Shown: positions 44,292-61,106 of the stretch, piece after piece
Position numbering within the stretch: position 1 is the first letter of the stretch
Layout of the letters: every line of letters starts with the position of its first letter
NCBI GenBank assembly: GCA_963663965.2
Contig: CAXXFK010000018.1
Span: forward strand, 78,935-142,934
DNA length: 64,000 nucleotides
Direction of reading: 5' to 3'
Source of the DNA: Sedimentisphaerales bacterium
Lineage (GTDB): Bacteria; Planctomycetota; Phycisphaerae; Sedimentisphaerales; SM23-30
The notes under the pieces: model-generated
Databases searched by the model: none
Seen by the model: only the letters and a program-made list of their open reading frames with translations
What the model was told of the DNA's origin: nothing
Translations under genes and position numbers: made by a program

Positions 44292-44323
44292 AGGCTCGTG
44301 TCGTATTGACGCGGGCCTTTTTT
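44292..44323 (+). terminator. Rho-independent terminator of the chemoreceptor gene (group II intron target)
   Basis: 9-bp stem AGGCTCGTG / CGCGGGCCT (two G-U pairs), 9-nt loop, followed by T6 ending exactly at the intron 5' GTGCG. Confidence 0.7.
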
Positions 44324-46215
44324 GTGCGCCGGGCATGATATCATGCTCATGGGGTTAAAGTCCCCTGCGGGCCGTGATGAGCGGAACCGCGAGCCGAAGG
44401 CAACTGCGGTGCAGTGATGCATCGTGGGAAGGAAGCCTCAGGTCAAAGTTGGACTCGACGGACAGGAACCGGATAGCAGGCCGGTGTCGTCTGGGTAAGG
44501 GAGCAATGGATTCCGATGCCCGATACTCATTCGGAGACGACAACGGTAAATTCGGCGAGGCCCAACGGGAAGCATGATATCTTACCCCGGGAGATCTGCA
44601 AGGCAGTCCTGTTGGACACTGTGCTATCAAGACTATAACGCTCAAGATGGCACGGATTCTTGCAGAAGTCAGCAGAGGTCATAGTAGGGGGCTTCCTTTA
44701 AGCTCCCAAAGGACCGAATTTTATGGACAGGCTCGTTGCGAGCGAGACACTCGATGGCCAACCAGGCACCGACAACTCAAGGCGATTTGAACCCCGGCCG
44801 GGGCGGCGAGAGCGGTACTCAAGCTGTCCGGCCCGAGGCGTGTAGTTGCGCTGCGGCGATCTCGACACCCCAACCCCTGACCGACCATCTGATGGAACAG
44901 ATTGTTGCCAAAGACAATCTGCGCCAGGCTTATCGGCGCGTCGTGGCCAATAAAGGAGCGGCCGGTATCGACGGTATGACCGTTGAAGACCTGTACGCAT
45001 GGTGCCGCGCGCATATCAGCGAACTGATCGAACACCTGTTGACCGGCCGGTATCGTCCGGCACCGGTGCGCGGAGTTACTATTCCCAAGCCCGGCGGCGG
45101 TCGGCGGCAACTGGGCATTCCCACCGCCGTGGACCGGATGGTACAACAGGCGATCCTACAAGTCCTGACTCCCATTTTTGAGCGAGAATTCAGTAACGCC
45201 AGTTATGGGTTTCGGCCCGGCCGAAGCGCTCATCAGGCCATTGGCAAGGCGAGCGAGTATGTCCGGAACGGCTACAACGTTGTAGTCGATATGGACTTGG
45301 AGAAGTTCTTTGACCGGGTCAATCACGATATGCTGATGGCCCGAGTGGCCCGCTCTGTCAAAGACAAGCGGCTGCTGAAACTGCTGCGAGCCTTCTTAAA
45401 TGCGGGCTTAATGCAGGATGGCGTGGTGCAACCGCGCGAAGAGGGCACTCCGCAAGGCGGCCCCCTGAGCCCATTGCTGGCGAATGTGTTATTGACAGAC
45501 TTCGACCGGGAGATGGAAAAGCGCGGCCACCGATTTGTGCGTTATGCGGATGACTGCAATATCTATGTGCAGTCGATTCGGGCCGGCGAACGGGTGCTGG
45601 ACAGTGTGACTCGTTTCCTGCAAGTCCAGCTGAAACTCAAAGTGAATCGGGAGAAATCGGCGGTAGGCCATGTGAGTGAGCGCAGCTTTCTCGGCTACCG
45701 CCTGTTTCGACGACGGGAGCCTCGGACTGTCCCAAAAGAGTGTCTCCCGTTTTAAGGACAAGATTCGCGAGTTGACCCGGCGCAACAAGCCGGGGCGATA
45801 CGCGGCGATTATTACGCGCGTAAACCGTACGCTGACCGGATGGCTCAATTATTACCGATATATCCGCAGCGATGCGACACTGAAGAAGCTGGACGGCTGG
45901 ATTCGCCGCAAGTTGCGAGCCATCAAACTCAAACAACTCAAGCGGAACTATACGACTGCCAAGTTCTTTATTCGCCACGATGTCGCCGAATACCAAGCCT
46001 GGCTCGGCGCATTGAGCGGTGTGGGGTACTGGCGGAAAAGCGCCATGCCTGAATCGCACCAAGCCATGAATTTGCAATGGTTTAAAGAACAAGGATTGAT
46101 CAGCCTGTCTCGCAGATGGCGGGATTTAAAAGAAATTCCATAGGAAACCGCCCGGTGCCGAGCAGGCACGCCGGGTGGTGTGAGAGGTTGGGGCTGCAAA
46201 GCCCCCGCCTACTCG
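44324..46215 (+). mobile_element. Group II intron, bacterial class C (IIC)-like
   Basis: It starts with GTGCG at 44324. About 570 nt of structured non-coding RNA precede an RT/maturase ORF. After the ORF comes a domain V-like hairpin CCGCCCGGTGCC-GAGCA-GGCACGCCGGGTGG (46148-46178) with a CGC triad and a 2-nt 3' bulge. A domain VI-like GGGGCT-GCAA-AGCCCC hairpin follows. The 3' end is approximate (plus or minus 10 nt). Confidence 0.8.
44892..46143 (+). pseudogene. Group II intron-encoded reverse transcriptase/maturase, interrupted by a frameshift
   Basis: RT motifs are present (GAAGIDGMTVEDL, IPKPGGGRRQLGIPTAVDRMVQQA, SYGFRPGRSAH, VVDMDLEKFFD, PQGGPLSPLLAN, FVRYADDCNIYV), followed by the X/thumb region (RVNRTLTGWLNYYRY). 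The frame changes near 45708 between ...FLGYRLF and DDGSLGLSQKSVSRFKDKIRELT. No HNH/En domain. Confidence 0.8.
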
Positions 46216-46270
46216 ATATGTAATAAACAGGATGGTTATCTTATGCCGGCAGTATTAGCTGGCCATAGGA

Positions 46271-47185
46271 TTATTCCTGCTTAATTGATTGAGAGGTCAT
46301 TCGAAAATCCCTCGGGGTCATCCCTGTCCGATTTTTAAAAACCCGGTGAAAATAGTAACTGTTTTCATATCCCACTCTCGTTGCCACTTCATTACAGCGC
46401 AAAGACGTGGTTCGTAACAGGGTGCGGGCGGCTTCAATGCGTAATTGCTGTTGATATTCCAAAGGGGTCATTTGATATTCCCGCTTGAAGATGCGAAACA
46501 AGTACCCTCGTGAAATACCACAATTGTCTGCCAGTCGGTCGATATCCAGAGGCAGGTGAAAGTTCTGGCGGATTGCTTCGCGAGCCTTGATCAAGGCGTC
46601 ATGTTCGGTTGGAGTGGCTGTTTCGACATTTCCGATTGTAATCAGCAGTTCAAATACGGTCATCAAAGCCCGTTGTTCATAAAAATGGGATAGCGGACTG
46701 GCCTGATCGGCAAAATCGACGATTTCAATTAATACAGACTTAAGTTGACGGGTTTGCTGGGCATTGAGTTGAACAGGGCCTGCCAGATTGGTGTTGATTC
46801 CAAATAATTCCAAAATCAATTGCTCAATCGCCAGATCCAGAAAAATGCCTTGATCAGTCTCGTAGGTGAAAGTGACTTCTGAATAAATGGTATCAGCCCG
46901 GTCAGTAACAAAATCATGTGATTGGCCGGGTGATATGATTGCCAGCGATCCTGGTCCGGCCTGGAATTTCTTGCCATTTACCCGATAGCCGCCCTGATTT
47001 GCAGTGTATAATACCAGATGATAAACTGGATGGGCGTGTTCCCGAAAGGTTTTCTGGTCACCATAAGGCCGGTTTTGATCGATAGTTGCATGATGCAGAC
47101 AGGGATAATATTTGCCCTGAGGCAGATGTAAAGCCAGCCATTGGGCCTGTACTGGACGTCCGGAAGTACGGATATAACTTCGCAT
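46271..47185 (-). CDS. AraC family transcriptional regulator
   Basis: Cupin-like N-terminus. C-terminal HTH pair (IDRLADNCGISRGYLFRIFKREYQMTPLEYQQQLRIEAARTLL...CNEVATRVGYENSYYFHRVFKNRTGMTP). Confidence 0.9.
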   Translation of the reverse strand: MRSYIRTSGRPVQAQWLALHLPQGKYYPCLHHATIDQNRPYGDQKTFREHAHPVYHLVLYTANQGGYRVNGKKFQAGPGSLAIISPGQSHDFVTDRADTIYSEVTFTYETDQGIFLDLAIEQLILELFGINTNLAGPVQLNAQQTRQLKSVLIEIVDFADQASPLSHFYEQRALMTVFELLITIGNVETATPTEHDALIKAREAIRQNFHLPLDIDRLADNCGISRGYLFRIFKREYQMTPLEYQQQLRIEAARTLLRTTSLRCNEVATRVGYENSYYFHRVFKNRTGMTPRDFRMTSQSIKQE

Positions 47186-47302
47186 AAGTCACTATTGTAT
47201 AATAAAAGGTGATGATTATGTATTTGATTTAATGGCCAGATGATTATAATACATATAATAAATTGATTCAAGTCTCGTTTTACTTATAAGTATCGTGAAG
47301 CA

Positions 47303-48348
47303 ATGAAAAACAAACACTGGAATGAATTGTTAAAGCTGATCGCTGGTGAGCCGCTGGAGATGTTACCGACCGGACTGATTATCGATAGTCCCTGGTTGCC
47401 TGGATGGGCTGGCATTGACACCCTGGATTATTTTACCAGTGATGAACTCTGGTTTCAGGCGAATTTAAAAGCGGAAGAGGTATTTGAAGACCTCTGGTTC
47501 CTGCCCGGTTTCTGGGCTGAATATGGGATGTGTACGGAACCGTCGGCTTTTGGCGCCCGTTGCAGCTGGCATCGGAATGAGTTGCCGTTTGCACATAAAA
47601 CCATTCATAGTCTGGAAGAAATCGACCGGCTTGTCGTACCAGACCCGGCAGTAGACGGCTTGGCGCCTTTTGTGATAAAGCGGTTAGAGAGGTATCGTTC
47701 CCGGATCGAGCAGGCCGGACATTCAATACGCTTTGCCGTGGCGCGCGGCCCGCTTAATGTGGCCTCTTTTATGATGGGAGCGACTGAATTTTTAATGGCA
47801 TTGCGTGATGATTCCCTTAGAATTCACAAGCTGTTACGGGTAATTACGGACTACCTGATACAATGGCTCGACCTGCAAATCAAAACATTTGACAGTATTG
47901 AGGGGATTTTAGTTCTGGATGATATCGTTGGATTCTGTGGGGAGCCGGATTTTCTGGAATTCGCCCGGCCTTATCTGACTGAAATATTTCAGGCTTTCAA
48001 TGTTCCAGTCAAGCTCTTTCATAACGATGCTGATGGCCGTGTTTGTGCCGGATACCTTCATAAGATGGGGGTCAATATTTTTAATTTCAGTTTTCTGCAC
48101 AACCTGGCGGAAATGCGAGAGTGGGCAGGCGATAAGTTACGCTGCTGGGCAATATTCCGCCGAGGGATATTCTGGCCCAGGGCGAACCGTCCGATGTCAA
48201 AGCCGCCGTGCAATCCGCACTGGCCGGCTTAAATGATTATCGCAATATTATCATGTCCTGTGGCGGGGGTACGCCCGATGGAGTATCGACTGAAAACATT
48301 CAGGCCTTATTGGAATCGACACAGGAGTTCCAAAAAACTTTGGTTTAA
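47303..48348 (+). pseudogene. URO-D family protein gene with a 1-nt frameshift near 48135
   Basis: Frame 1 (47303..48232) ends in nonsense after ...AEMREWAGDK. The conserved C-terminus VTLLGNIPPRDILAQGEPSDVKAAVQSALAGLNDYRNIIMSCGGGTPDGVSTENIQALLESTQEFQKTLV continues in another frame up to TAA 48346-48348. GATAAGTTACG would read GDKVTL if one A were added. Confidence 0.75.
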
Positions 48349-48362
48349 TTTTGGGGGCATTT

Positions 48363-49604
48363 ATGCGCAATCTTTTTGCAGTGTGTTTGATGGGAATTTT
48401 CATGAGCCAGTTACTGGCTGCTGATCGTAAAGAGTTTACCGTCCGTGGCGGGGAGTCGGACTGGCTGAATATGCCGGTTGCTGTCAGTCTTGATGGGCTG
48501 CGTCCTTGTGGCGACGATGAAATGATCTTGCTTGAACAAGTGATTGGAACCCGTCGATTTAGTGTGCCCTGTCAGGTCGAACCCGGACCAAACGCGCAAC
48601 TCTGGTTTATTCCCTTAGAACCCATCCCATCCGGGAATATCGTTTCTTACGAAATAAGTTTGAAATCCGCCGAGGCCGTTACGCCGGTCGTGATAGTTGA
48701 GCGAACGGATAAAGAGTTTAAACTGTTAACTTCACAAGGGCCTGTTTTGGATTATTACTATGCACTGCACGATGTGCCCGCGGGAGTCGATCCGGCTTTT
48801 CGGCGCAGCGGTTTTATTCATCCGCTCTGGTCGCCCGGAGGACAGGTGCTCACAGAGATCCAGCCCAAAGACCATTATCATCATTATGGGATCTGGAATC
48901 CCTGGACCAAAACCCATATCGAAGGCCGCGAGATCGATTTCTGGAACCTGGTCAAGAAACAGGGTACCGTTCGGTTTGCCGGTTTGCTGGCCATTGAAAC
49001 CGGGCCGGTTTTTGCCCGTTTGGCGGTCAGGCAGGAACATGTGATGTTTGAGTCAGATGGCCGTGAACGGGTCGCCATGAACGAACTCTGGGATATTAAG
49101 GCCAGTTCCGCCAAGTTAAAAGGCAAACCGGTCTGGGTCATCGATCTGACTTCCACGTTAAATAATAATCTGGATAGCCCCATTGAACTGGCCGAATATC
49201 GCTATGGCGGCGGCTTGGGATTCCGCGCGACCGATCTCTGGACCAATAAGAACAGTACGGTTTTGACCTCTGAAGGCAAAACCCGTAAGGAGGCCGACGC
49301 CAGTCGGGCGCGCTGGTGCAATATTTCCGGTCAGACCGATCAAGGGAAAGCCGGCATTTTGTTTCTCAGTCATGATCGTAATCGTGAACATCCCGAACCG
49401 ATGCGGATGTGGCCGGAGGATGCCAATGGCGGTCGGGGGGATGTGTTCTTTGAATTTTGTCCGATCCGGCTTAAGAACTGGTTTCTCCAGCCGGACAAAA
49501 CGTATGTATTAAGCTATCGTATGATCGTTTATGACGGCGATCTGGATGTGAAGATTGCCGAAGTATTATGGAATAATTTTGTGAATCCGTTGGCGGCCGA
49601 ATAA
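48363..49604 (+). CDS. DUF6807 (PmoA-family-like) secreted protein
   Basis: Signal peptide MRNLFAVCLMGIFMSQLLA. The HPLWSPGGQVLTEIQPKDHYHHYGIWNPWTKTHIEGREIDFWNL segment is typical of the family that accompanies ThuA and Gfo/Idh/MocA genes (from memory). Confidence 0.55.
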   Translation: MRNLFAVCLMGIFMSQLLAADRKEFTVRGGESDWLNMPVAVSLDGLRPCGDDEMILLEQVIGTRRFSVPCQVEPGPNAQLWFIPLEPIPSGNIVSYEISLKSAEAVTPVVIVERTDKEFKLLTSQGPVLDYYYALHDVPAGVDPAFRRSGFIHPLWSPGGQVLTEIQPKDHYHHYGIWNPWTKTHIEGREIDFWNLVKKQGTVRFAGLLAIETGPVFARLAVRQEHVMFESDGRERVAMNELWDIKASSAKLKGKPVWVIDLTSTLNNNLDSPIELAEYRYGGGLGFRATDLWTNKNSTVLTSEGKTRKEADASRARWCNISGQTDQGKAGILFLSHDRNREHPEPMRMWPEDANGGRGDVFFEFCPIRLKNWFLQPDKTYVLSYRMIVYDGDLDVKIAEVLWNNFVNPLAAE

Positions 49605-49630
49605 CTAACCCTAAGATTCAGGAGTACGAG

Positions 49631-50407
49631 ATGAAACATGGAATTAAAACCGGGCTGCTATGTGTTGCCCTGGCATTTACCCTGGCGTTATGCATGGGGC
49701 AGAACAAGCCGCTAGGCAAGCACGTACTGATTTATACCAAAAACGGCAAAGGTTACGTGCATGATAATATTGCCGCCAGTGTCGAGTGCCTGAAGGGTAT
49801 CTGCGATCGCAATCAATGGACCTATGAGGTTAGTGATGACTCCGCGATATTTACCCCGGAAAAGCTGAAAACGTTTGATGTTCTGGTATTTACCAATACC
49901 AACAATGAAACGGTTGATACGGACGATCAGAAAAAGGCGTTTCAGGATTATATCCACGCCGGGGGCGGCTTTGTCGGTATTCATTCGGCCTGTGGATCAG
50001 AACGTCAGTGGCCCTGGTTCTGGGATAATCTAGGCGGAAAATTTGTGCGGCATCCCCCGTTGCAGCCTTTTGATATCAAGGTCATCGATCCTAAACACGT
50101 ATCGACCCGTCATTTGGGTGAAATCTGGAAGTGGGAAGATGAGTGTTACTTTATGAACCAGCTGAATCCGGATATTCATGTTTTGCTGACGGTGGATTTA
50201 CGCACCATCAAAGATGAAGGCAAAACCAAATATCCCGGTGAAGTTTTCGGCAATTATTTTCCTTTGTGCTGGTGTCATGAATTTGAGGGCGGGCGCCAGT
50301 GGTATACGGCGCTGGGCCATAAAATCGATCATTATCAAGACGAAAATTTTGTCAACCATCTGGCCGGCGGCCTCCGCTGGGCAATGACCAAACCTGTCAA
50401 GAAATAA
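49631..50407 (+). CDS. ThuA domain-containing protein
   Basis: VLIYTKNGKGYVHDNI...DVLVFTNT...GGGFVGIHSA...FPLCWCHEFEGGRQWYTALGH...HLAGGLRWA matches the ThuA (trehalose utilisation-like) pattern. Confidence 0.8.
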   Translation: MKHGIKTGLLCVALAFTLALCMGQNKPLGKHVLIYTKNGKGYVHDNIAASVECLKGICDRNQWTYEVSDDSAIFTPEKLKTFDVLVFTNTNNETVDTDDQKKAFQDYIHAGGGFVGIHSACGSERQWPWFWDNLGGKFVRHPPLQPFDIKVIDPKHVSTRHLGEIWKWEDECYFMNQLNPDIHVLLTVDLRTIKDEGKTKYPGEVFGNYFPLCWCHEFEGGRQWYTALGHKIDHYQDENFVNHLAGGLRWAMTKPVKK

Positions 50408-50419
50408 GAAAGGGTAACC

Positions 50420-51781
50420 ATGAAACGAAGAGATTTTCTTAAGTGTACCGCGGCCGCGGCCGGTTTCAGTATTGTACCATCCTCGGTATTTGCCCAGTTT
50501 GGTCCTAATAGCAAGATTAATGTCGCTCATATTGGCTGCGGCCGTATTTGCCGTGAACATGATTTACCGGAGGTTATCCGTCATGATTTCTGCCGATATG
50601 TCGCGGTTGCCGATGTTGACTTGAAACGCGCCAAAGACGGCAAGAAAAAAATTGATGATTATTATGCCAAAAAGAACACCTCGACAGATGTGAAAGTCTA
50701 TCAGGATTACCGTGAAATGCTGCAAGACAAGAGCATTGACGCGGTGGTGATTTCGACGCCGGACCACTGGCACGCTCAACCGGCGATGGAAGCCGCATTG
50801 GCTGGTAAGGATGTTTACCTGCAGAAACCCACCTCGCTGACCATTGCTGAGGGGCGGCAGATGAGCGACACCTTCAATCATACCGGGCGTATTTTCCAGC
50901 TTGGCAGTCAGCAGCGCTCGCGCAGTCCGTGGCCTCAGTTTAAACTGGTATGTGAACTGGTTCGCAACGGGCGGCTGGGTGAGCTTAAGCATGTTGAAGT
51001 AGGGCTGGGTACGGATCCTGGCTGTGGTGATGAACCGGAAATGCCGATTCCCAGTAATTTGAATTACGATATGTGGCTGGGCGCGACGCCGGAAGTTTAC
51101 TATACAGAAAAAAGAGTGCATCCGCAAAAAGATTTCAGCCGGCCGGGCTGGCTGCGCTGTGAGCAGTTTGGCGCGGGGATGATTACCGGCTGGGGTGTTC
51201 ACCATCTCGATATTGCCCACTGGGGTATGGGGGCGGAGTTTACCGGGCCGACGGAAATCGAATGTGAAAAAGTGGTCTATCCCAAATCGGGTTTGTGGAA
51301 TGTTCATGGCGATTTCACGATTCACGCCAAGTATGCCAGCGGCGTGACCATGGAGATTTCCAGCCGGTTTACCAATGGCGTGAAGTTTATCGGGACGGAA
51401 GGCTGGATATTCGTTTCGCGCGGCAATGTACAGGTTACAGCCAGCGATCCGGTGCCGAAGGGTGAGAGTAATGCCCTGAAGGCCAGTGATCCCAAGATGT
51501 TAGCGGCCCTGGGGCCTGATGGTTTCCGGTTGTATGACAGTCCGGAGCAGCATCTTAACTGGCTGGAATGTATTCGTAACCGTCAGATGACCATTTCGCC
51601 GGCGGAAGTGGCGCATCGGTCCTGTACGGTTTGCCTGGTCAGCCATATTTCGATGAAATTCCCCAAGAAGAAATTGTACTGGAATCCGGTTAAAGAAGAA
51701 TTTGTCGGCAATGCCGAAGCGAACAGTATGCTGTCGCGTCCTCAACGCAAGCCCTGGGGTACGAACAATATCAAAGTATAG
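50420..51781 (+). CDS. Gfo/Idh/MocA family oxidoreductase with Tat signal
   Basis: Twin-arginine signal MKRRDFLKCTAAAAGFSIV. Rossmann start INVAHIGCGRI. Family motif VISTPDHWHA. Confidence 0.9.
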   Translation: MKRRDFLKCTAAAAGFSIVPSSVFAQFGPNSKINVAHIGCGRICREHDLPEVIRHDFCRYVAVADVDLKRAKDGKKKIDDYYAKKNTSTDVKVYQDYREMLQDKSIDAVVISTPDHWHAQPAMEAALAGKDVYLQKPTSLTIAEGRQMSDTFNHTGRIFQLGSQQRSRSPWPQFKLVCELVRNGRLGELKHVEVGLGTDPGCGDEPEMPIPSNLNYDMWLGATPEVYYTEKRVHPQKDFSRPGWLRCEQFGAGMITGWGVHHLDIAHWGMGAEFTGPTEIECEKVVYPKSGLWNVHGDFTIHAKYASGVTMEISSRFTNGVKFIGTEGWIFVSRGNVQVTASDPVPKGESNALKASDPKMLAALGPDGFRLYDSPEQHLNWLECIRNRQMTISPAEVAHRSCTVCLVSHISMKFPKKKLYWNPVKEEFVGNAEANSMLSRPQRKPWGTNNIKV

Positions 51782-51814
51782 CAGTGGGACAATAAACCGT
51801 TTTTTCCCCAATAG

Positions 51815-51845
51815 AAGGTGGGTCAATCATTGGCTCACCTTTTTT
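51815..51845 (+). terminator. Rho-independent terminator
   Basis: Stem AAGGTGGG / CTCACCTT (one G-U pair), 11-nt loop, followed by T-run TTTTT. Confidence 0.55.
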
Positions 51846-51989
51846 AATTATCCATCCAGGTATAAATCAAGCAATTTATCAAGTGTTGAGCTATTTACTT
51901 GCACACAAAGGCGGAACTCGTTACAATAAATTCTGGAACATAAGCAAATTTACCTCCCGATATCCCCTTATGATCACGAGGAAAATGAG

Positions 51990-54932
51990 ATGAAAAGCAT
52001 GATGGTCTCCCTGTTTATTTTGTCGGTATGGCTGATTTCGTTTTCTCTGGGTGCGGCACCGTTAGACAATATTGTTACCACCGGGTTATGGCATATGGAT
52101 GAGACGCTGGCGGATGGATTTATGACGCCGGATGATGATTCGAATAATCCGGGCCGGGACCGGGATCTGACGTTGTTTTATTCCGGGACCAATCCCAATC
52201 CGCCGGTTGTGGTTGCGGGTAAAGAGGCCGGGGCATTGGCGTTTAGCGGGGAGAATATCGCGATTGCATCGAATTTCTGGAACTCTTCTTATACTGAATT
52301 TTATATTGAATACTGGCTCTATCTGTACAGTACGCCAACGGATCTGGGATCGGCGATCATGTACCTGTTCAGTTCGAGTTTATTCGAATCGGCGGTCTGG
52401 CCCCGCACTAATGCCACGACCGGGGCCAATGAAGATTATATGCGGTTCAAAATTTATACATCGTCCGGCAATCATACCGGTGAGATTATGGTGGCTGATC
52501 TGAAAAACCAGTGGCTTCATGTGGTTCAGTCTTATGACGCCAGTCGCCATTATGTCTTTACGATTACTGATGAATCTGGTGGTGTGCGTTCGGTGACGTT
52601 TACCGGTTCCAGCAAGCTCAAGTCGGTAACTTGTGGATTCCAGTTTGGTTATACTCCCGGCAAGCCATCCAACCGGGGTTTTCGGGGGATGATCGATGAG
52701 GTTAAAATCTCCAACAGTCTGACCATACCCCATCAGGCCTACAGCCCGGTTCCAGCCCAGGGCGCTACGCTGACCGAGCCGCCGGCGGTATTACGCTGGT
52801 CGCCGGGTTATGTGGCGGCGTTCAGCGATGTTTATCTGGGTAACAACAGCGCGAATGTGGCGGCTGGGGTCAAGTATCCCGGTGATATCGATGGCAGTAC
52901 GATGGTCGATCTGCTAGATTTTAACTGGTTATCCAATGGTTGGGGTCAGGTGGAGCAATCGCCCTGTGTGGATATTAACCATGACAGCGCGATTGATACG
53001 GTCGATCTGGCCGGTCTGCAGGGGGACTGGCTGGCGGATCCTTTGCCCTGGTACCTGGGTGGAACGGGATCGAATACCTTGCCGGCGCCGAAGATGGCGC
53101 CTGCCACCCAGTATTACTGGCGGGTGGCGAGCGCCAACTGTGATGAAACCGATCCGGGGGTGATCTGGTCATTTACCACCGGTTCGGCACGGTCCACATC
53201 GCCTGCGCCGGCGAATAATGCTACGGGCGTATCGACTATGGATTATCAATGCCAGCTGGGCTGGACACCGGGTTTTGGCGCGGATTCATTTAATGTCTAT
53301 TTTGGTACTAATTCGGATCCGGGCTATTATACCAACGTAGCTGAGCCGTTGGCGATATCCCCTGATCTGCAGCCGGGAAAGCGGTATTACTGGCGTGTCG
53401 ATACGCTGGGTGAATCTGGTGTTACCGAGGGGACAGTCTGGAGTTTTACCACCGGGGCTATGATCGCCACGCACCCGACGCCCGCCCAGGGAGCGACGAA
53501 GGTTACCTATCCGCTGGAGGGTGTTCAACTCAGCTGGAGCAGTGATTTTGCGCCCCAGGCCTATCATGTTTATTTCGGCAGTGAGAATCCACCCGCCTAC
53601 CTGGGTTCGACTACCGATCCGGATTATCTGACACCGGCGGTTGACTCGAATACAACGTATTACTGGCGGGTTGACGCGGTCGATCCGCTGGGGACAGTCG
53701 TTGGGCCGGTCTGGAGTTTCAGTACCACGACTCCGGCGTTTCCGACGGCGGAAGGTTTTGGGCGGTTTGCTTCCGGGGGCAGGGGGGGTACGGTTTATCA
53801 TGTGACCACCCTGAACGATTCGGGTTCGGGCAGTTTTCGCGACGCGGTGAGTCAGAGCAACCGTACGATTGTTTTTGATGTTGGGGGACAGATTGTGTTG
53901 TCATCGCGGCTGGGGATCACCAAAAATAATCTGACGATTGCCGGCCAGACGGCGCCGGGACAGGGGATTTCGATCGCGGGGCCGGGGATTTCGGTGGGCG
54001 CGGATAACCTGATTATCCGTTACCTGCGGGTGCGTTATACTAATTCCGATACCCAGGATGACACGTTCAGTTTGAACGATACCTGTGAGAATATCATTAT
54101 CGACCACCTGTCCACCTCGTGGGGGACGGATGAAGTTTTTTCGATAACCGGATCGCAATTGATCACTGCGCAGTGGTGTATTATCGCGGAAGGTCAGAAC
54201 ACGCTGGGGCATTCCAAGGGAAGCCTGCTGGAATGGCCGCAGTTGACCATGCATCATTGCCTGTACGCGCATAACAATGACCGGAACCCGAAGAGCAAAG
54301 GGGTGTTCGATTACCGTAATAATGTGGCTTATGACTGGGGGTTCGCGCCGTTTATCGCCGGGGGTGGGTCCGCCGGGATGAGTTATGCCAATTGCGTGGG
54401 CAATTATTATATCGCCGGGGCCAGCAGTACGACCAGGGCGGGTGTGATGGTTATCCTGGGTAACTCCAATTATCACATGTACTTCGAAAATAACCGGATC
54501 GATTCGAATCAAAACGGGGTGGCCGATGGGGTGGATCTTGGGCTGGCCATGATCGATCCGGAGCAGCCGCTGACGGTGATGGCTGAGCCGTACGCGTATC
54601 CGGTAGTGGCGACGGATTCGCCGGAGGTGGCTTATCTGCGGGTGCTGCAATACGCGGGCTGCTCGCTACAGCGCGACGCGATCGATACCCGGATTGTTAA
54701 CCAGGTGAAAAATCAGACCGGGGGAATTGTGTACCATTATAATGATGTCGGTGGGTTGGGGACGATAGCCGGGGGCGCGGCGCCGGTGGATACCGATCAG
54801 GATGGTATGCCCGATAGCTGGGAGGATGGCCATGACGGGCTGAGTAAGACGAATCCGGATGACCGTAATGGGGATCCGGATGGGGATGGGTATACGAATC
54901 TGGAAGATTATCTTAACTCGATTGCTCCCTGA
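51990..54932 (+). CDS. Secreted multidomain pectate lyase (LamG-like, dockerin-like, three YYWRVD modules, PL1-type beta-helix, TSP3 repeats)
   Basis: 980 aa with a signal peptide. LamG-like N-terminus (MIDEVKISNSL). Dockerin-like DIDGSTMVDLLDF...DINHDSAIDTVDL. Three ~95-aa modules end in VWSFTT. Pectate-lyase core GGRGGTVYHVTTLNDSGSGSFRDAV...LTIAGQTAPGQGISIAG...IIRYLRVR. C-terminal DTDQDGMPDSWE...DPDGDGYTNLEDY. Confidence 0.85.
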   Translation: MKSMMVSLFILSVWLISFSLGAAPLDNIVTTGLWHMDETLADGFMTPDDDSNNPGRDRDLTLFYSGTNPNPPVVVAGKEAGALAFSGENIAIASNFWNSSYTEFYIEYWLYLYSTPTDLGSAIMYLFSSSLFESAVWPRTNATTGANEDYMRFKIYTSSGNHTGEIMVADLKNQWLHVVQSYDASRHYVFTITDESGGVRSVTFTGSSKLKSVTCGFQFGYTPGKPSNRGFRGMIDEVKISNSLTIPHQAYSPVPAQGATLTEPPAVLRWSPGYVAAFSDVYLGNNSANVAAGVKYPGDIDGSTMVDLLDFNWLSNGWGQVEQSPCVDINHDSAIDTVDLAGLQGDWLADPLPWYLGGTGSNTLPAPKMAPATQYYWRVASANCDETDPGVIWSFTTGSARSTSPAPANNATGVSTMDYQCQLGWTPGFGADSFNVYFGTNSDPGYYTNVAEPLAISPDLQPGKRYYWRVDTLGESGVTEGTVWSFTTGAMIATHPTPAQGATKVTYPLEGVQLSWSSDFAPQAYHVYFGSENPPAYLGSTTDPDYLTPAVDSNTTYYWRVDAVDPLGTVVGPVWSFSTTTPAFPTAEGFGRFASGGRGGTVYHVTTLNDSGSGSFRDAVSQSNRTIVFDVGGQIVLSSRLGITKNNLTIAGQTAPGQGISIAGPGISVGADNLIIRYLRVRYTNSDTQDDTFSLNDTCENIIIDHLSTSWGTDEVFSITGSQLITAQWCIIAEGQNTLGHSKGSLLEWPQLTMHHCLYAHNNDRNPKSKGVFDYRNNVAYDWGFAPFIAGGGSAGMSYANCVGNYYIAGASSTTRAGVMVILGNSNYHMYFENNRIDSNQNGVADGVDLGLAMIDPEQPLTVMAEPYAYPVVATDSPEVAYLRVLQYAGCSLQRDAIDTRIVNQVKNQTGGIVYHYNDVGGLGTIAGGAAPVDTDQDGMPDSWEDGHDGLSKTNPDDRNGDPDGDGYTNLEDYLNSIAP

Positions 54933-54954
54933 TGGTTATGAATGGATTGTGGGC

Positions 54955-56170
54955 GATTGGGTTCGTTTGGAATCCGGGGGGGTGTTTTAGAGAATCGTTT
55001 CACACGAAGCTATCAAACCACGAGAAGAAAAACAGAATCTTTTCGACAGGATCATCCCGATCCAGATGGCTCGGGATTTCGCTTGGCTCAATATCCGGGA
55101 CTTTCGGCTGATGACAGGATATAAGAAATGGGATTTTGGATTTAATGCAACAGCCGATTTAACCGCAGATGGACGCTGATAAAAAACGGGTTTAAGTTGT
55201 TAAAATATAAGAAGTTAGAACCACGGAATACTCGGAATACACGGAAGAAAAAAAAGATATAATTTATTGATATAAAACAGGTTATGACTTAATGATGGAT
55301 TCTAGTGAATGCGGTGAACTTTCGGTTTTTATGTTAAAATAGGTAGGATTGGGTTCGTTTGGATCTGGGGGGGGGCTTAGAGAATTGTTTCACACGAAGT
55401 CGCCAAGCCGCAAAGAAGAAACAGCCAGAAATCCGAACCACTAATGGACACGAATGGACACCAATATGAAAAAGGCGAAAAGGCGAAAAAAACGGCCGAT
55501 AGAACCACGAAGCGCCTTCGGCTTCACGAAGCGCGTCCTCCTGAGGCGGATCTTCGACCCTTCTGAGGCGGATCTACGACCTTCGGCGCTACACGAAGGG
55601 GCTATGGCTGAATAAAAATGATATAAATACTTTATGATAAATAAGATACAGGCTATTTTTTCTTCATTGGGTTCGTTTGGAAATTGGGGTGAATATGGGA
55701 ATACCGGAAGGGTTTGGTGTCTGCATTCATTACCAGCAAGATGCTCGTTCTGGCTTTGGTATTCTGTTGTCAAAGAGCGGGTGTTTTTTTTCGAAAGCGG
55801 CGGCCGGGGGTTTGTTGGTGGTTGGGTTTACCCGTTTGTTGATTTTAGGTCATTATTGCGTGAATGTCAAATTTAAAATTAAGTTTTATTTTTGGTAAAT
55901 ATGGTGGGGTGGCTTTTTGTGTTATGGGCTGGTTGGTAGATTATGGGAGTAGGGATTGCCATGAAATTTCGGAGTGTGGCTTCGAATGTTCAGGTGAGAG
56001 GTTTTTACCTGGGGTGAGAATGTCGCTTTTGAGGAAACGGTAAGAAAAGTGTTGAACCACTGACACAGGGCGGTCAAGCCGCAACCAAAGAAGAAATAGT
56101 TCACACATAGAAGCCACTAAGCCGCTAAGGCGCAAAGAAAAAATAGTTTGTCAGACAGGCTAACAGGATT
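54955..56170. repeat. Three tandem copies of the composite word-repeat module (same family as 4133-4640)
   Basis: The unit head GATTGGGTTCGTTTGGA..GGGGGG..TTAGAGAAT.GTTTCACACGAAG occurs at 54955-55009 and 55347-55399, and is truncated at 55665-55691. Each head is followed by short tandem words (CACGGAA/CTCGGAA, ATGGACAC, AAAGGCGA, CTGAGGCGGATCT.CGACC x2, AGCCAC/AGCCGC, ACAGGAT). There are no ORFs with coding character. Confidence 0.7.
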
Positions 56171-56347
56171 GACGGGATCGGATAGAGTTTTGTAAGTATT
56201 TATTGTGCCAGTTTTTATGGGGGGGATTCGATTGGTTAGTGTGGTTTTTTTTGTTTGTAAATGCGGATTATAAAATATTTATGATGCGATAATTTATTAT
56301 GAATCCGTATAAATATTCCAAAATAAGATAATATATTCTCGATAGAT

Positions 56348-56375
56348 TTGCTTATAGAAAAACTTGTGATATAAT
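56348..56375 (+). promoter_or_regulatory. Sigma-70-like promoter with extended -10
   Basis: TTGCTT (56348-56353), 16-nt spacer, TGATATAAT (TG-extended -10, TATAAT 56370-56375). AAGGA SD at 56413-56417 precedes ATG 56425. Confidence 0.5.
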
Positions 56376-56424
56376 TAATCAGTCAAGCACAATAATAAAA
56401 CTTAAATTTCTAAAGGAAATAATC

Positions 56425-58719
56425 ATGGATATTTTCAGCCGCTGGAAAAAACAGGATGTGAACAATCTGACCCGAGCTCGTGAAAACGCCAAAAACAAAA
56501 AGAATGAAAAAATGACACAGAAAGACTTGGCAGATGAAATGAAGGTTTCTCAAAGCGTCATTTCTAAGTGGGAAAAGAATATAAGTACCATACCGGCCAA
56601 CCAACTATTCAGACTTGGTGAAATTCTGGGAGTGTCTGCGGAATCATTACTGCAAAGTGAGCCGTTAAAATTTTCCAGTTGGCCCAACTTGCAACCGTAT
56701 CATACTCTTGATGCTAAATTGAGCCTCTACAATTCTCTTTTTCGCAATGTCGACTGGAATCTGATGGTTAGTGGAGGAATCAGCTCTTCAATTACCGACC
56801 TAAAAAAAGCGACAGATTATTATCGTCGCAAACCGATGGTGGGTATCATCGGTCGGTTTGACGCAGGTAAATCAGCCTTGATCAACGAGTGGTTGGGCGA
56901 AGAAGTATTACCTGAGCGCTATCAACCGATGACATCGCTACCGACTTTGGTTATGCATACTGATATTAAACCGACCTGGATGAAAACGAATGAAGATGTG
57001 TTGGTTCTTGACGAAGAGAATTATAATGCCATCTTTTGGTGGGAAAAACCTGATTCGGTGGTTGCCATTGGAAAACGAAACGCATTGGTGGAATTTGCAA
57101 GTCACAAAGGAGATATCCTATCGGAATCCGCGAAAATTGCTATCGTCTTTATTGACAATCCCGTTTTGTATTCCTGTTCGATTGTAGATTTTCCTGGCTT
57201 TCTTCATAGTGAAAAAGATGAGTCTCTGACAAAATTGCTCATGAGCCAACTGGATGTTTTAATCTATACCAGTCCAATTAATGGCTGTATGGAAACATAC
57301 GACCGGGATATGCTGGCGAACTATTTACCCGTCTTGCCAGTTATACGGCCAAGGCATGAATCAAAAGACGGTTTTGTGCCCTACAAAAACCTTATAATCG
57401 CGATTACTCGTTGCGATCGTGATGAAAAAAAAGATAAGGTCGACGGAGTTATCAATGACCTAAAAGAAAGCCTACCGGTCATTTATACGGAGAATACTTT
57501 GCCTTTATTGTCGGATATAGTTGGGCAGGAAATTACCGCATTAGATCTTTGCAATCGAATTGTACCGTTTTCAATCAAAGTTCCTGAACGGCGTAATGTG
57601 TTGATAGACGAACTCAAAAATATCCTGACTGAATATATGCCGGACTGGTGGAATCACCAGGCAGCCAAAGAAATAGAGGGCCAGAAAAATACTGCTATCA
57701 AGATTCTAGAAAATCGAATCGCAGATATCGATGATCAGGTGAATAACAAAGATCATAATGAAATTCTATATCAACACATGAAATCGGTAATGTCAGCTAT
57801 CAGTAAGCTGATTATTAAAAGCCAGGACGACCTGAACGAGATTATTGTTAAATCACAGAATCAAACCATCAGTGAATTTACAAATAGCTATAATACGTTA
57901 ATGACCCAGGAGGCTATGACAGAATATATAACAAAACGGTTTGCAAATGAAAAAAATGCAAAAAAGCGAATAGGCAACAGTTTAAGTGAACACTTAAAAA
58001 TGTTAATCCAGAAAGCTATTCAGCCGGAAACGGACCAGTTCGCTAAAGTTCTTGACCAAAAACTGGTGGAGTTGAATGATAAAATCAAAGAATTACTGAC
58101 GCTGCCAACCGATAAATTTTCCAAAGCTGAAATGGGTGATATACATGTTAATCCAGTATTACCGAATTTTGATACACGAGTTGCTTTTGTCTCAGGATTG
58201 GCAGGTCTGGGCACTTTGGGAGCCTTGAGTGCATGGGCTTCACTGGTAGCCGCGGGCAGCAACCTGGGCGCCTATATACTGGTCGCGAAGATTTCCGGCC
58301 TCTTGGCAGCCGCCGGTATTCATGTCGGTGGCGGCGCGGCTTTGGTATCGCTGGTATCTGTATTAGGCGGTCCGGTTACGGTGGCAATCGGCCTGTCGGT
58401 TATCCTTGCTGCGGCCGTGTTTGGCAGCATGAAATTGTTTGGCCCAACCTGGCAAGTACGCATGGCCAAAAAAATTATCGAAGAATGCAGCAAAAATAAT
58501 ATACTTGAAAATTGTACCAATGCGATTATTAAATACTGGGATGCTACACAAGCCGGGACAAAAAAAGGAATGAATGGTATCAGGGATGAAATTGAATCTA
58601 AATACAATGAATTAAAGCAACTGGTTGAAAATTTTGACAGCGTTAAAGAAGAGCTCGGCCGCCAGAAAAAAAATTGCCAGACCATTCGAAGTGAAGCCAT
58701 AAAACTGCCTGGTATGTAA
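56425..58719 (+). CDS. Fusion protein: XRE-type HTH + dynamin-like GTPase + helical stalk + glycine-zipper transmembrane region
   Basis: 764 aa. HTH_3 (MTQKDLADEMKVSQSVISKWEKNISTIPANQLFRLGEILGVSAESLL). GTPase G1 GIIGRFDAGKSALIN, G3 VDFPGF, G4 ITRCDRD. A long coiled-coil middle part. About 90 aa of Gly/Ala-rich hydrophobic helices (VSGLAGLGTLGALSAWASLVAAGSNLGAYILVAKISGLLAAAGIHVGGGAALVSLVSVLGGPVTVAIGLSVILAAAVFG). A helical C-terminal tail. Confidence 0.8.
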   Translation: MDIFSRWKKQDVNNLTRARENAKNKKNEKMTQKDLADEMKVSQSVISKWEKNISTIPANQLFRLGEILGVSAESLLQSEPLKFSSWPNLQPYHTLDAKLSLYNSLFRNVDWNLMVSGGISSSITDLKKATDYYRRKPMVGIIGRFDAGKSALINEWLGEEVLPERYQPMTSLPTLVMHTDIKPTWMKTNEDVLVLDEENYNAIFWWEKPDSVVAIGKRNALVEFASHKGDILSESAKIAIVFIDNPVLYSCSIVDFPGFLHSEKDESLTKLLMSQLDVLIYTSPINGCMETYDRDMLANYLPVLPVIRPRHESKDGFVPYKNLIIAITRCDRDEKKDKVDGVINDLKESLPVIYTENTLPLLSDIVGQEITALDLCNRIVPFSIKVPERRNVLIDELKNILTEYMPDWWNHQAAKEIEGQKNTAIKILENRIADIDDQVNNKDHNEILYQHMKSVMSAISKLIIKSQDDLNEIIVKSQNQTISEFTNSYNTLMTQEAMTEYITKRFANEKNAKKRIGNSLSEHLKMLIQKAIQPETDQFAKVLDQKLVELNDKIKELLTLPTDKFSKAEMGDIHVNPVLPNFDTRVAFVSGLAGLGTLGALSAWASLVAAGSNLGAYILVAKISGLLAAAGIHVGGGAALVSLVSVLGGPVTVAIGLSVILAAAVFGSMKLFGPTWQVRMAKKIIEECSKNNILENCTNAIIKYWDATQAGTKKGMNGIRDEIESKYNELKQLVENFDSVKEELGRQKKNCQTIRSEAIKLPGM

Positions 58720-58733
58720 ACGAAGGAAAAAAG

Positions 58734-59024
58734 GGAAGGGAAAAAGGGGGCATTCTACATTATTGCCATTGAATTTTTGTGATTTAAAATACAGGTATTA
58801 TGCCAAGGGCAGCACGGGCCAGTGTGGGTGATATATGTTATCATGTGATCCATCGTGGTAATGATCGTGCGGGGGGCTTTCACCGGTATCAATTGCCAAC
58901 TCCCCTTGGGCAACCAGGATTGGATAGAGGGCATTGCTCAGAAATTTGGTTTAGAACAGACCAACCGGCCAAGAGGCCGGTCACGGAAAGATGCGAAAAA
59001 GTAGAATGTCCCCTTTTCCCTTCC
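58734..59024 (+). mobile_element. MITE derived from an internally deleted IS200/Y1-transposase-like (PF01797-type) gene, copy 1
   Basis: Inverted ends GGAAGGGAAAAAGGGGGCATTCTAC / GTAGAATGTCCCCTTTTCCCTTCC. Inside are the first ~30 codons (MPRAARASVGDICYHVIHRGNDRAG.F) and the last ~30 codons (..GNQDWIEGIAQKFGLEQTNRPRGRSRKDAKK, in another frame) of a Y1-transposase-like gene. The catalytic middle is missing. About 88 percent identical by eye to 61107-61393. Confidence 0.65.
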
Positions 59025-59270
59025 GGCAAGCTCGCTCAATCACCCAATCGGGTAGTATCTTACGGATCGAATTTAAAGTCGAAACTTCCAATTTGCGATA
59101 AATTTCTAAAGGTTTTTCACGACGATCACCGAAATTATTGTCAGACATAGGTAGCCTCCGTTCGATAATGTTTTGTTCATAATTTCACTATCGACTCCGG
59201 AGGCTTTTTTTCTATAATTACCTTAAACTACCGCCATTCGGTCCTGCTCCCTTTCGAACAGCCTATTCAT

Positions 59271-59303
59271 AAAAAAGCCCTGTCAGTGTTGGATAACAGG
59301 GCT
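59271..59303 (-). terminator. Rho-independent terminator of the GH172 gene
   Basis: On the minus strand: stem AGCCCTGT / ACAGGGCT, 12-nt loop, followed by T6. Confidence 0.7.
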
Positions 59304-59333
59304 TCAGGATATCTATATCGCAGGGTATTTCAC

Positions 59334-60422
59334 TTATGGCTGCGTTGCATACCAATAGGCGACCGATGAAAACTGGTTTTCGGCGTCATTATTATGGCCA
59401 TGTTCGATTGTCACCTTCAGCGATTTTTCAAACGGGATCGGATCGGGAATATGCCAGCGATACACCGAAAAGGTTCCCCAGCAGAAGTTTTCCCGCTCGC
59501 CTTCGTGCCACGTGTGATAGCAGGTTCCAAAATAAGGCGACTGGAACGGCCGGCGGACTCCCCAGGCCATATTGAAGTAATCTTCGGCCCCGGTTCCCAT
59601 GATCGAAGTCGGCATCTGCTGGCCATCAACGAATATCATGTCATCGCCTTCGTACCATTTGCCCTTCTCGTCCTGGTGGGCTTCGATGTTGAAAATACAG
59701 CCGATGTAATGTCCTTTTCCCTGGGTATCGAGAATGACATAGTTTTCCGCAGCCGAGGTGTTTTTGTTATCCGCAAGCTCGCCGGCGATTGTCTTTTCAC
59801 TGCGATACTGTGTATGAAAATAACAGGTCTCTGGCGGCAGGGTTTTGTGCTTTTGATAATCGATATGGTAATAGAACGATCTGATTTTCTGATCGCCGGT
59901 ATTGGAGATGGAAATCACCGCTTTGCGGCGAAACGCCATGGGAAAATAGCCATTGAACGCTGCTCTGCGCGGAGGGTGGTCCATGACCGATTCGGCCGAC
60001 TTCATTACCACGATCATCGCACTGTTAAAGTCTGCACAGTCACCGTGGGCCATGCCGAAAAAGGGACCGAAGGGACAGTCCACCGCGGGTTCAGCGGCAT
60101 CATCCCAACGAATTCGCAGCACCAGCTTCGATAAGTAATCGGGATAGTCCTGAACACCCACGGTAAACCACATATGCTTGATAATGCCGGGACCTGTCAG
60201 CGCAGCGATATCAGCCGTCTGCCCGGGTTCAAGAGAAATACTATCTTTATTGCCACCAGTCACATTGAAGCTGGAAGCCCGGCAGGCCTGGTAATCCTGC
60301 GTCACTATCAGCGAAGGAATATTTCCGTCAGCGCCCCTGCTCTGCGCCGGCGTACAAGCCGACAGGAACAAAATGCAGCTCGTTATCATGACTGATGCGT
60401 AATATTTTCCAATCGTGTCCAT
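59334..60422 (-). CDS. DUF2961 / GH172 family lipoprotein
   Basis: ORF 59334..60440; AAGGAG lies 7 nt upstream of ATG 60422. Lipobox LFLSAC. DUF2961 hallmarks are present (GPGIIKHMWFT, YFHTQYR, GKGHYIGC, WYEGDDMIFVDG, GTGAEDYFN, YRWHIPDPIPFEKSLKVTIEHGH). Confidence 0.85.
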   Translation of the reverse strand: MDTIGKYYASVMITSCILFLSACTPAQSRGADGNIPSLIVTQDYQACRASSFNVTGGNKDSISLEPGQTADIAALTGPGIIKHMWFTVGVQDYPDYLSKLVLRIRWDDAAEPAVDCPFGPFFGMAHGDCADFNSAMIVVMKSAESVMDHPPRRAAFNGYFPMAFRRKAVISISNTGDQKIRSFYYHIDYQKHKTLPPETCYFHTQYRSEKTIAGELADNKNTSAAENYVILDTQGKGHYIGCIFNIEAHQDEKGKWYEGDDMIFVDGQQMPTSIMGTGAEDYFNMAWGVRRPFQSPYFGTCYHTWHEGERENFCWGTFSVYRWHIPDPIPFEKSLKVTIEHGHNNDAENQFSSVAYWYATQP

Positions 60423-61106
60423 ATTTATACTCCTTATCATTCAAACCAAGGGCAGTGTCCATTTAACTGTGTAAATGGTTTTACGATTCATAGCAGATTC
60501 CACTTCTGTCTTGCTTTCTCATCAATCTTTCATCAACTTGTATTTATCATCCTGGAGGATAAGGCTCTGCTGGAGAGCAACCTGAGCGTCAGGTCAGGGT
60601 GATGCGGAGACAAGAGGCTCAGGAACAGGCCAAGTTGTCCTTGAGCCATTTTTGTTTTAGCTCACAAAGTGACAAACTCAATCAAAACAGTATCGCCGCA
60701 GGTGCCCCCATCTTTGTCACATCGGCATTCGGTCAGTGAACTTGATGGCAAGCTGGTTCATCGCTGACTTACCGGCGCCGTATCGGCATTGTCCGTTTTT
60801 TTGCAATATTTGCAAGAGCCAAATAAAAAATCTTCGGTATGGACACTTCAGTTCAACCTGGAATCAATCACGGACCATCCTGACCTGTGATCCTGGTCAT
60901 CGTAACGGCGATTGCCGGTTTTATCGCACCTATCCTTCATGTCTGAAGAAAATGAGAAGATATCGCCCCTGGGAAGATGATAAACTTGCTTTGATATTCT
61001 CGATCCCGATGCCTGTATCAACAAATGAACTGTAGTTGGCCGAGATTAATTCACCGACCGCACAGTTGTCCTTGATCCATAGATGTCCTTTCAGACAAAT
61101 CAGAGC

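Follow-up and report, generated by a model that had tools for sequence, protein, structure and literature searches.

A large family of single-gene dynamin-like proteins with an N-terminal helix-turn-helix and a predicted membrane block, candidate conflict modules of bacterial mobile elements

To date, dynamin-like proteins have been linked to bacterial immunity only through the two-gene system Eleos, which still lacks a mechanism, and the housekeeping protein DynA. Eleos (LeoA + LeoBC; Millman et al. 2022), encoded by the Leo operon of enterotoxigenic Escherichia coli (ETEC), provides a defence that depends on the P-loop. Bacillus subtilis DynA is reported to cluster at membranes upon phage infection and to delay lysis (PMC8844932, PMC12998192), and the genes of bacterial dynamin-like proteins (BDLPs) are described as mostly paired in operons (PMC6104087). 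Here we analyse a solitary gene encoding 764 amino acids (aa) in a 64,000-nucleotide (nt) stretch of contig CAXXFK010000018.1 from a Sedimentisphaerales bacterium (hereafter the window), in which a helix-turn-helix (HTH) domain, a dynamin-like GTPase and a hydrophobic membrane block are fused in one chain, together with the family to which it belongs. The protein is of a known kind, a BDLP; what appears to be new, judging from sequence, is a single-gene, HTH-bearing, predicted integral-membrane family distributed over mobile elements and defence islands. The reading that we favour, and hold at about an even chance, is that members of the family act at the cytoplasmic membrane as mobile conflict or defence modules against phages or other mobile elements.

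The domain order that a sequence-only reading had proposed for the gene (HTH, GTPase, stalk, Gly-rich hydrophobic block, tail) was reproduced exactly by Pfam, motif positions, an AlphaFold2 (AF2) model and hydropathy:

56425..58719, + strand: coding sequence with an ATG start, 764 aa, an HTH / bacterial dynamin-like GTPase / membrane-block fusion (from the list of open reading frames, ORFs)
56464..56652, + strand: XRE/Cro-C1-type HTH domain, residues 14-76, followed by a flexible linker at 77-92 (Pfam, AF2)
56701..56826, + strand: two helices preceding the G domain, residues 93-134, as in the BDLP neck (AF2 helices 93-108 and 119-134; Foldseek to Nostoc BDLP 2j68/2j69)
56827..57579, + strand: dynamin-type G domain, residues 135-385 (Pfam; AF2 alpha/beta fold at 138-385)
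57580..58104, + strand: helical stalk or trunk, residues 386-560 (AF2 helices 387-440, 442-492, 495-505, 509-558)
58180..58440, + strand: Gly/Ala-rich hydrophobic block, residues 586-672, about four predicted membrane helices at the position of the BDLP paddle (hydropathy)
58441..58716, + strand: C-terminal helical tail, residues 673-764, which by prediction folds back onto the stalk bundle (AF2 helices 676-690, 693-735, 737-760)

Pfam cutoffs were exceeded by HTH_3 at residues 27-73 (38.9 bits against a cutoff of 23, E 9e-10), by HTH_19 (33 bits against 30.2) and by Dynamin_N at residues 139-299 (49.6 bits against 27, E 5.8e-13); MMR_HSR1 also matched. In the AF2 model (mean predicted local distance difference test score, pLDDT, of 72.9; predicted template-modelling score, pTM, of 0.60) the HTH is built of helices at 14-21, 32-39, 43-51, 58-68 and 72-76 with pLDDT up to 91, and pLDDT falls below 50 at linker residues 79-85. 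The nucleotide-binding motifs, located in the translation and in a 154-member alignment, are G1 GRFDAGKS (143-150), G2 T170, G3 DFPG (255-258) and G4 TRCD (328-331), and the 764 residues hold one Dynamin_N domain and one P-loop. The hydrophobic block, 87 residues lying between AF2 helices 509-558 and 676-760, includes only K622, H633 and K670 as charged or ionisable residues, and 20 small-xxx-small motifs were counted in the 95 residues around it.

Compared with the PDB using Foldseek, the model matched best to Nostoc BDLP (2j69/2j68, E 9e-13) and Campylobacter DLP1/DLP2 (5owv/5oxf), next to Mycobacterium IniA (6j72, E 2.8e-11) and then to Fzo1 and the mitofusins, with LeoA (4aur) at rank 41. 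The top five structures (2j69, 2j68, 5oxf, 6j72, 5owv) were returned at E 1e-12 to 1e-10 and probability 1.00, with TM-scores that were low (0.25-0.42), as expected of hinged multi-domain proteins. A sequence search against solved structures reached the P-loop region only (5owv_C, E 0.0014). By this AF2 model, the window protein belongs to the BDLP/mitofusin class of dynamins and adds an HTH at the N-terminus. Past the HTH, its best full-length structural matches are Nostoc punctiforme BDLP1 (2J68/2J69) and Campylobacter jejuni DLP1/DLP2, which have in common with it a G domain, neck and trunk helices and a hydrophobic membrane element placed between trunk helices; however, identity is 12-15% and those proteins have no HTH. 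The Gly-rich block, with its 87 residues and roughly four helices, is also far longer than the paddle of BDLP1. IniA, a membrane-stress-related dynamin of the conserved iniBAC operon that is induced by cell-wall drugs, has the same BDLP fold but neither an HTH nor a multi-helix membrane block.

Eleos resembles the window protein in its dynamin-type G domain, helical stalk and C-terminal membrane segment, and relatives of the window gene, like Eleos, have been found in defence-type islands. In contrast to the Eleos gene pair, the window gene is solitary, with no LeoA-type partner in 64 kb, and the HTH that is conserved in the family is not mentioned in the Eleos description. The best PADLOC match was LeoBC (E 4.9e-12, 43.8 bits) in two stretches, the better of which (496-757) covers the membrane block and reaches into the tail; LeoA followed (E 5.8e-8, 30.3 bits), both Leo profiles aligning from the stalk region onwards, and the remaining PADLOC matches were generic HTH models. 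The C-terminal half, membrane block included, thereby appears distantly LeoBC-like. Membership of Eleos itself was rejected, as there is no partner gene in the 64 kb and the LeoBC and LeoA scores are weak, partial and of superfamily level. Equivalence to CrfC was likewise discarded: NCBIfam returned only a P-loop match to this protein and generic HTH repressors, and the CrfC match is confined to a 46-residue P-loop region (41 bits, where the cutoff is 1146). The gene for DynA is chromosomal and has a housekeeping role, its product consisting of two fused BDLP modules and binding the membrane peripherally, whereas the window protein has one G domain, predicted integral hydrophobic helices, an HTH and relatives on mobile elements, and a DynA-type double dynamin was excluded on the single G domain. 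What they have in common is membership of the BDLPs, DynA with a reported anti-phage effect exerted via the membrane (PMC8844932, PMC12998192).

An exhaustive profile search of 1.84 billion cluster representatives (50% identity clusters) recovered 568 members at E<=1e-30, and nearly all of the best 150 of 568 (E below 1e-148) aligned over the complete architecture, starting at profile position 1-8 and ending near 733. This search overturned the extreme rarity suggested by a word-index homologue search, which had found nine relatives (22-38% identity, nearly all with HTH and Dynamin_N) and the same nine when repeated with a 138-sequence alignment. That a one-polypeptide HTH-dynamin was undescribed, as first supposed, agrees with the literature searched, where no description of the fusion or the family was found; it is nonetheless not an oddity but a large, already-sequenced family, whose members carry the database labels 'dynamin family protein', 'putative membrane protein' and, at JGI, 'XRE-family regulator'. 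PADLOC v2 has no dedicated model for it and yields only weak LeoBC/LeoA and generic HTH similarity.

An HTH-only hidden Markov model (HMM) found the domain in 141/154 representatives and in 67/67 full-length metagenomic genes, and the core TQxxLAxxLGxSQxxISRxE is kept across the family, with Q32, A36, Q43, S47, K/R48 and E50 conserved. Among the 154 representatives, G1, the G2 Thr and the G3 DxPG vary little or not at all. G4 mostly reads [TS]HAH; the Asp that specifies guanine is kept in 31/154, among them the window protein (TRCD), and nucleotide specificity may differ within the family. The C-terminal hydrophobic block occurs in all but one representative (153/154). Mean pairwise identity is 46% in the membrane block, 33.5% in the G domain and 32% in the HTH, and it drops to 25% in the tail, 18% in the stalk and 14% in the N-terminal helices. 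Because it is the best-conserved region of the family, its conservation argues that the membrane block may be more than a passive anchor.

The family is spread patchily across distant phyla. Members were found in Firmicutes (Bacillus cereus, B. albus, Metabacillus, Carboxydocella, Lactiplantibacillus, Lactococcus), Proteobacteria (Acinetobacter, Parasalinivibrio, Vibrio prophages) and Cyanobacteria (Calothrix, Microseira, Rubidibacter), as well as in metagenome-assembled genomes (MAGs) of a Mycobacteriaceae and a Phycisphaeraceae bacterium. The window protein is divergent, with a mean identity of 26% to the rest, and forms a small clade with P0002, P0003 and P0046. At one metagenomic locus (L009:801-5122) two HTH-dynamin genes of 739 and 660 aa stand in tandem, the second without most of the membrane block, an arrangement that recalls the usual pairing of bacterial dynamins.

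The relatives lie on prophages, on plasmids and in islands of defence type. In Vibrio cyclitrophicus, four near-identical P2-like prophage elements have a homologue of 765 aa whose N-terminus is HTH-like but divergent; it lies between replication gene A/ogr on one side and the portal/terminase genes on the other. In P2 the gpA-gpQ locus is a defence hotspot, home of old and tin (Rousset et al., PMC9122126), and the Vibrio prophage copy occupies this hotspot. The Phycisphaeraceae MAG has the gene directly after a phage integrase and ahead of a phage replication module, and in a Parasalinivibrio latis prophage it adjoins SLATT, SRAP and nuclease genes upstream of those for terminase, portal and capsid. 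Plasmid copies were found on two mobilizable Rep/Mob plasmids of 10-12 kb in Acinetobacter, on a Carboxydocella plasmid beside ArdC (with an annotated ATP-dependent endonuclease and a superfamily 1 helicase 6-8 kb away) and on dairy plasmids of Lactiplantibacillus and Lactococcus, one Lactococcus copy adjoining a DUF262 protein that matches HEC-06. The second-closest homologue of the window gene, P0003, sits among PD-T4-3 (E 1e-52), PDC-S11 (E 3e-125), a gene resembling a restriction endonuclease (REase) and an MmeI-type enzyme. Elsewhere, NB-ARC/STAND NTPases, PIN toxins and Uma2 occur near the gene; one island holds PhdYeFM/ParE, integrase fragments, STAND NTPases and BrxL; a HerA-like ATPase adjoins the Calothrix gene; and Mutator-family transposases flank the gene at four loci.

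A metagenome scan added 80 loci, falling into 32 groups at 70% identity, and 150 neighbours within 4.5 kb were surveyed in 28 of the 32 metagenomic groups. Pfam domains among these neighbours included Tox-GHH six times, Phage_integrase three times and Transposase_mut, Uma2, TIR_2, Toprim_2 and DUF1232 twice each. With PADLOC (E<=1e-10), JukA and PDC-S03 were each matched twice, and a type I restriction-modification gene, a methyl-directed REase, QatA, a CBASS cyclase with a four-transmembrane effector and HerA once each. A housekeeping context of the homologues had been set beforehand as the observation that would refute a defence role; no recurrent housekeeping neighbourhood, of cell-division or envelope-biogenesis genes for example, was found among the relatives' loci examined.

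One branch has a conserved operon. All-against-all BLAST of the neighbours identified a block of three genes that immediately follows the HTH-dynamin gene, on the same strand, in six independent groups:

L054:10230-12596, L067:7975-10387, L080:10272-12748, L081:10275-12675, L086:10183-12503 and L095:10207-12531, same strand as the HTH-dynamin gene: toxin operon loci

Gaps within the operon are -59 to +67 nt, and the HTH-dynamin is its first gene in these six lineages, of about 50 examined. The first downstream gene encodes a helical protein of about 275 aa. The product of the second, about 400 aa long, carries a Tox-GHH (HNH/EndoVII) nuclease domain (best E 1.4e-16) at its N-terminus and Gly-rich hydrophobic helices at its C-terminus, and the third gene encodes about 125 aa, immunity-like by eye, though not confirmed as such. 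PDB profile searches gave no name for the ~275-aa and ~125-aa proteins. With its HTH-dynamin the block appears to be an undescribed four-gene system, and its gene content would link the family to conflict systems by a route other than island statistics. Both the toxin operon and a partner dynamin are absent from the window.

Other neighbours recur on a smaller scale. Genes for NB-ARC/STAND-type NTPases lie divergently upstream of the HTH-dynamin gene at L014:8052-9488 and L040:2226-3695, two loci that BLAST groups together, and STAND-like NTPase genes are upstream of it at L106:6408-8844; their proximity could reflect a functional partnership or merely a shared island. A small DUF1232 membrane protein is encoded directly downstream of P0002, the closest homologue (L001:2786-3142), and has no equivalent in the window; the DUF1232 family recurs among the neighbours in two further, metagenomic loci. 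For the window's clade no conserved partner gene was found, the genes downstream of P0002 (DUF1232) and P0003 being unrelated. Both contigs that carry P0025 have, 43 nt upstream of it, a 177-aa ORF without Pfam matches (L108:9425-9958, L109:489-1022), which may be a clade-specific partner.

In the defence module that we favour, the protein would be held in the inner membrane by its conserved Gly-rich helices, with HTH, G domain and stalk in the cytoplasm, and nucleotide-dependent dimerisation of the G domains would lead to self-assembly on the membrane, as in other BDLPs. At sites disturbed by an invader, this assembly would either seal and stabilise the membrane, in the manner of DynA, or perturb it via the Gly-rich helices. 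The HTH is most likely an autoregulator, a claim that we hold less firmly than the defence reading itself. It would act as an operator-binding autorepressor whose dimer-dependent DNA binding is coupled to the oligomeric or membrane-assembly state, such that recruitment into assemblies would relieve repression and raise expression, with a logic like that of PspA/PspF or of membrane-tethered one-component regulators. Autoregulation is suggested because the gene always keeps its own upstream region and heads the toxin operon, and a feedback loop because HTH dimerisation would follow the oligomeric state. ToxR/CadC, PspA-PspF and RodZ are regulators that are tethered to the membrane or controlled by sequestration, RodZ being an XRE-HTH protein at the membrane. 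They resemble the proposed membrane-coupled autoregulation in keeping a cytoplasmic HTH at the inner membrane, but none holds a dynamin GTPase, and at the sequence level the comparison covered generic HTH profile matches.

A bolder version, which we consider doubtful, is single-polypeptide immunity, in which a membrane-embedded mechanochemical GTPase would, with the DNA-binding domain of its own chain, recognise DNA at the membrane, either that of an invading phage or plasmid or its own operator, and respond by membrane sealing or disruption, with the membrane-anchored GHH nuclease as an added weapon in one branch. Were this version true, no earlier dynamin would be known to link the recognition of DNA directly with the remodelling of membranes, and specialists would find a dynamin that binds DNA surprising. 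As a defence system, should it prove to be one, the family would be of a compact, single-gene kind missed by current defence catalogues, and would extend the parallel with the eukaryotic antiviral dynamins (Mx). The family, large, uncharacterised and experimentally tractable, offers a handle on what bacterial dynamins sense and do during infection, with the HTH as a testable input or feedback node, K149 as the site of a switch mutant and the Gly-rich block as candidate effector.

Several points weigh against a defence module. The evidence for function is genomic context. The neighbour survey relied on crude ORF calls with no background control, so enrichment is only qualitative; ordinary metabolic and housekeeping genes are also present among the 150 neighbours, and one well-annotated locus is plainly chromosomal in look. 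In curated mobile-element collections the family is rare (4/50,697 phage records, all near-identical Vibrio elements, and 10/72,556 plasmids), a central member of the Bacillus clade had no match in the phage collection, and peptide-pattern scans of IMG/VR viral contigs with two alignments gave HTH-only matches or nothing, and no full-length relative. No defence gene was identified beside the islet in the window. The initial proposal of a defence candidate survives as to where the relatives reside (prophages, plasmids, defence-type islands) and is tempered by an association that is qualitative and a family that is rare in phage and plasmid collections; the sensor, switch and effector roles that it assigned to the domains, and any abortive-infection phenotype, are conjectural. 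In the protein, AF2 confidence is low across the membrane block, and strict GTP specificity is uncertain for most members, whose G4 reads [TS]HAH, not NKxD/TKxD. XRE-type HTH folds can bind protein, as does that of RodZ, which binds MreB and not DNA, and the operator evidence that would back autoregulation (a shared 9-mer, p ~0.04) is weak.

Of the alternatives, the one that survives best, although we judge it unlikely, is that the gene is membrane-maintenance cargo, providing DynA- or IniA-like repair or stabilisation under envelope stress (pore-forming antibiotics, bacteriocins, lysis from without); mobile elements would then carry it as a host-fitness gene and the HTH would serve stress-responsive autoregulation. 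The fold matches to BDLP and IniA fit this account, the conserved membrane block suggests an intimate membrane role, and some loci are ordinary and chromosomal. However, housekeeping BDLPs are vertical and syntenic, whereas this family is patchy, low in GC in the window, and found in prophage hotspots and on plasmids, and a nuclease toxin operon in six lineages ill fits simple repair. The account also overlaps with the defence reading, DynA-type repair being a reported form of phage resistance.

A DNA-to-membrane tether is improbable. Here the HTH would bind the DNA of the element, or incoming DNA, and the dynamin would anchor it at the membrane, serving partition, replication anchoring, or the exclusion of entry or superinfection where DNA comes into the cell. 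The chain does combine a DNA-binding domain with a predicted integral membrane anchor, a gene of 715-761 codons is a large investment for the very small Rep/Mob plasmids, and the gene is integrase-adjacent in one prophage; superinfection-exclusion proteins of prophages are, moreover, typically inner-membrane proteins, and E. coli CrfC, matched here in the P-loop only, is a dynamin-like protein on DNA replication forks. Yet many members, the window gene included, stand alone on chromosomes, where no element remains for them to maintain, the plasmids have Rep and Mob functions of their own, and no conserved DNA site was identified.

Still less probable is a membrane-tethered transcription factor, a CI-like lysogeny or stress regulator in which the dynamin would sense the state of the membrane or the level of nucleotide and the protein would regulate genes, not act on the membrane. 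HTH and G domain are conserved to a like degree (32% vs 33.5%), the gene stands at the repressor position in one prophage (Phycisphaeraceae), JGI labels relatives as XRE-family regulators, and in six lineages it is the first gene of the toxin operon. The Vibrio P2-like prophage, however, has its own CI and Apl and carries the gene in an accessory hotspot; the most conserved region is the membrane block and not the HTH; a 690-residue mechanochemical module would be a costly sensor; and solitary copies such as the window gene have no obvious regulon.

Inter-bacterial antagonism, in which dynamin-driven vesicles or fission would export membrane-anchored toxins and the window copy would be an orphan that has lost its toxin, is very improbable: the operon does pair a Tox-GHH nuclease, a polymorphic-toxin domain, and its C-terminal Gly-rich membrane helices with a small immunity-like ORF, and LeoA was originally tied to vesicle-associated toxin release in ETEC, but the operon occurs in only six of ~50 lineages examined and most members are solitary, the toxin has no recognisable secretion or delivery domain, and the small ORF is not confirmed as an immunity protein.

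In the window itself, the gene forms a low-GC, single-gene islet set among sugar-metabolism genes. The AT-rich character first described for it was borne out (GC 41.5% and third-codon-position GC, GC3, 42%, against a GC3 of 50-62% in six nearby genes), as was the lack of a second dynamin: the family HMM, applied to all six frames of the 64 kb, matched the window ORF (644 bits) and nothing else. The low GC3 and the sugar-metabolism neighbours indicate that the gene is horizontally acquired. Pfam assigned the neighbours to ThuA, GFO/IDH/MocA, DUF6807, DUF2961 and a large Ig-domain protein, and found no phage genes among the ten neighbouring ORFs scanned (42259-60440). A location inside a prophage was considered and is unsupported, there being no tRNA in the window and the neighbours belonging to sugar metabolism. 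The signals and boundaries of the islet are as follows:

56348..56375, + strand: putative promoter, a weak -35 TTGCTT (56348-56353) with an extended -10 TGaTATAAT (56367-56375) (sequence reading)
56413..56417, + strand: Shine-Dalgarno AAGGA, 7 nt ahead of the ATG (sequence reading)
56267..56324, no strand: AT-rich inverted repeat I1, ATTATAAAATATTTAT / ATAAATATTCCAAAAT, upstream of the promoter, a weak candidate operator
54955..56146, no strand: left boundary, about 1.2 kb of non-coding DNA with three copies of a GATTGGGTTCGTTTGGAA... unit and other short repeats (repeat families D1-D3)
58734..59024, no strand: right boundary, a 291-bp element with 15-nt terminal inverted repeats, 15 nt past the stop codon (inverted repeat I4)

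The gene's own extended -10 and Shine-Dalgarno, noticed in the sequence-only reading, were read again at 56367-56375 and 56413-56417. A consensus promoter scanner did not list the 56348..56375 site because its -35 is weak, matching the consensus at 3/6 positions. The arms of I1 are 16 nt long and 81% complementary, and its 9-mer core ATAAATATT recurs upstream of the two closest homologues (p ~0.04 against dinucleotide shuffles), a weak hint that gives weak support to I1 as a putative operator of the window gene.

The repeat array described to the left of the gene corresponds to the repeat families at 54955-56146. Copies of the GATTGGGTTCGTTTGGAA unit start at 54955, 55347 and 55665, spaced by 392 and 318 nt, and the flank also holds a tandem 22-mer (55537-55580) and three CAAAGAAGAAA[CT]AG words. 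Rfam had no match in the flanks, the left repeat stretch included, and thus no structured RNA or riboswitch. To the right, the element taken at first for a transposase-derived one is indeed an inverted-repeat element at 58734-59024, although its transposase origin is unconfirmed, the internal ORF having no significant Pfam match. Its arms, 58734-58748 and 59010-59024 (GGAAGGGAAAAAGGG / CCCCTTTTCCCTTCC), are 93% complementary, and it is present as a single copy in the window. The ORF in question (58800-59150) starts within the element, opens with MPRAARASVGDICYHVIHRGNDR and looks by eye like an IS200/RAYT-type N-terminus.

On the minus strand, a 55-aa ORF (58981-59148) with a strong GGAGG ribosome-binding site appears to enter the inverted-repeat element and may be the 5′ remnant of a gene disrupted by it. 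An exact 14-mer direct repeat, TAAATTTCTAAAGG, at 56403-56416 and 59099-59112 brackets the gene together with the element, its left copy overlapping the Shine-Dalgarno of the window gene; a repeated 14-mer arises in ~4% of local shuffles, and this one is probably due to chance or may be an insertion relic. About 10 kb upstream of the islet, an ORF at 44736-45755 (+ strand) encodes an RVT_1 reverse-transcriptase domain (E 3e-40).

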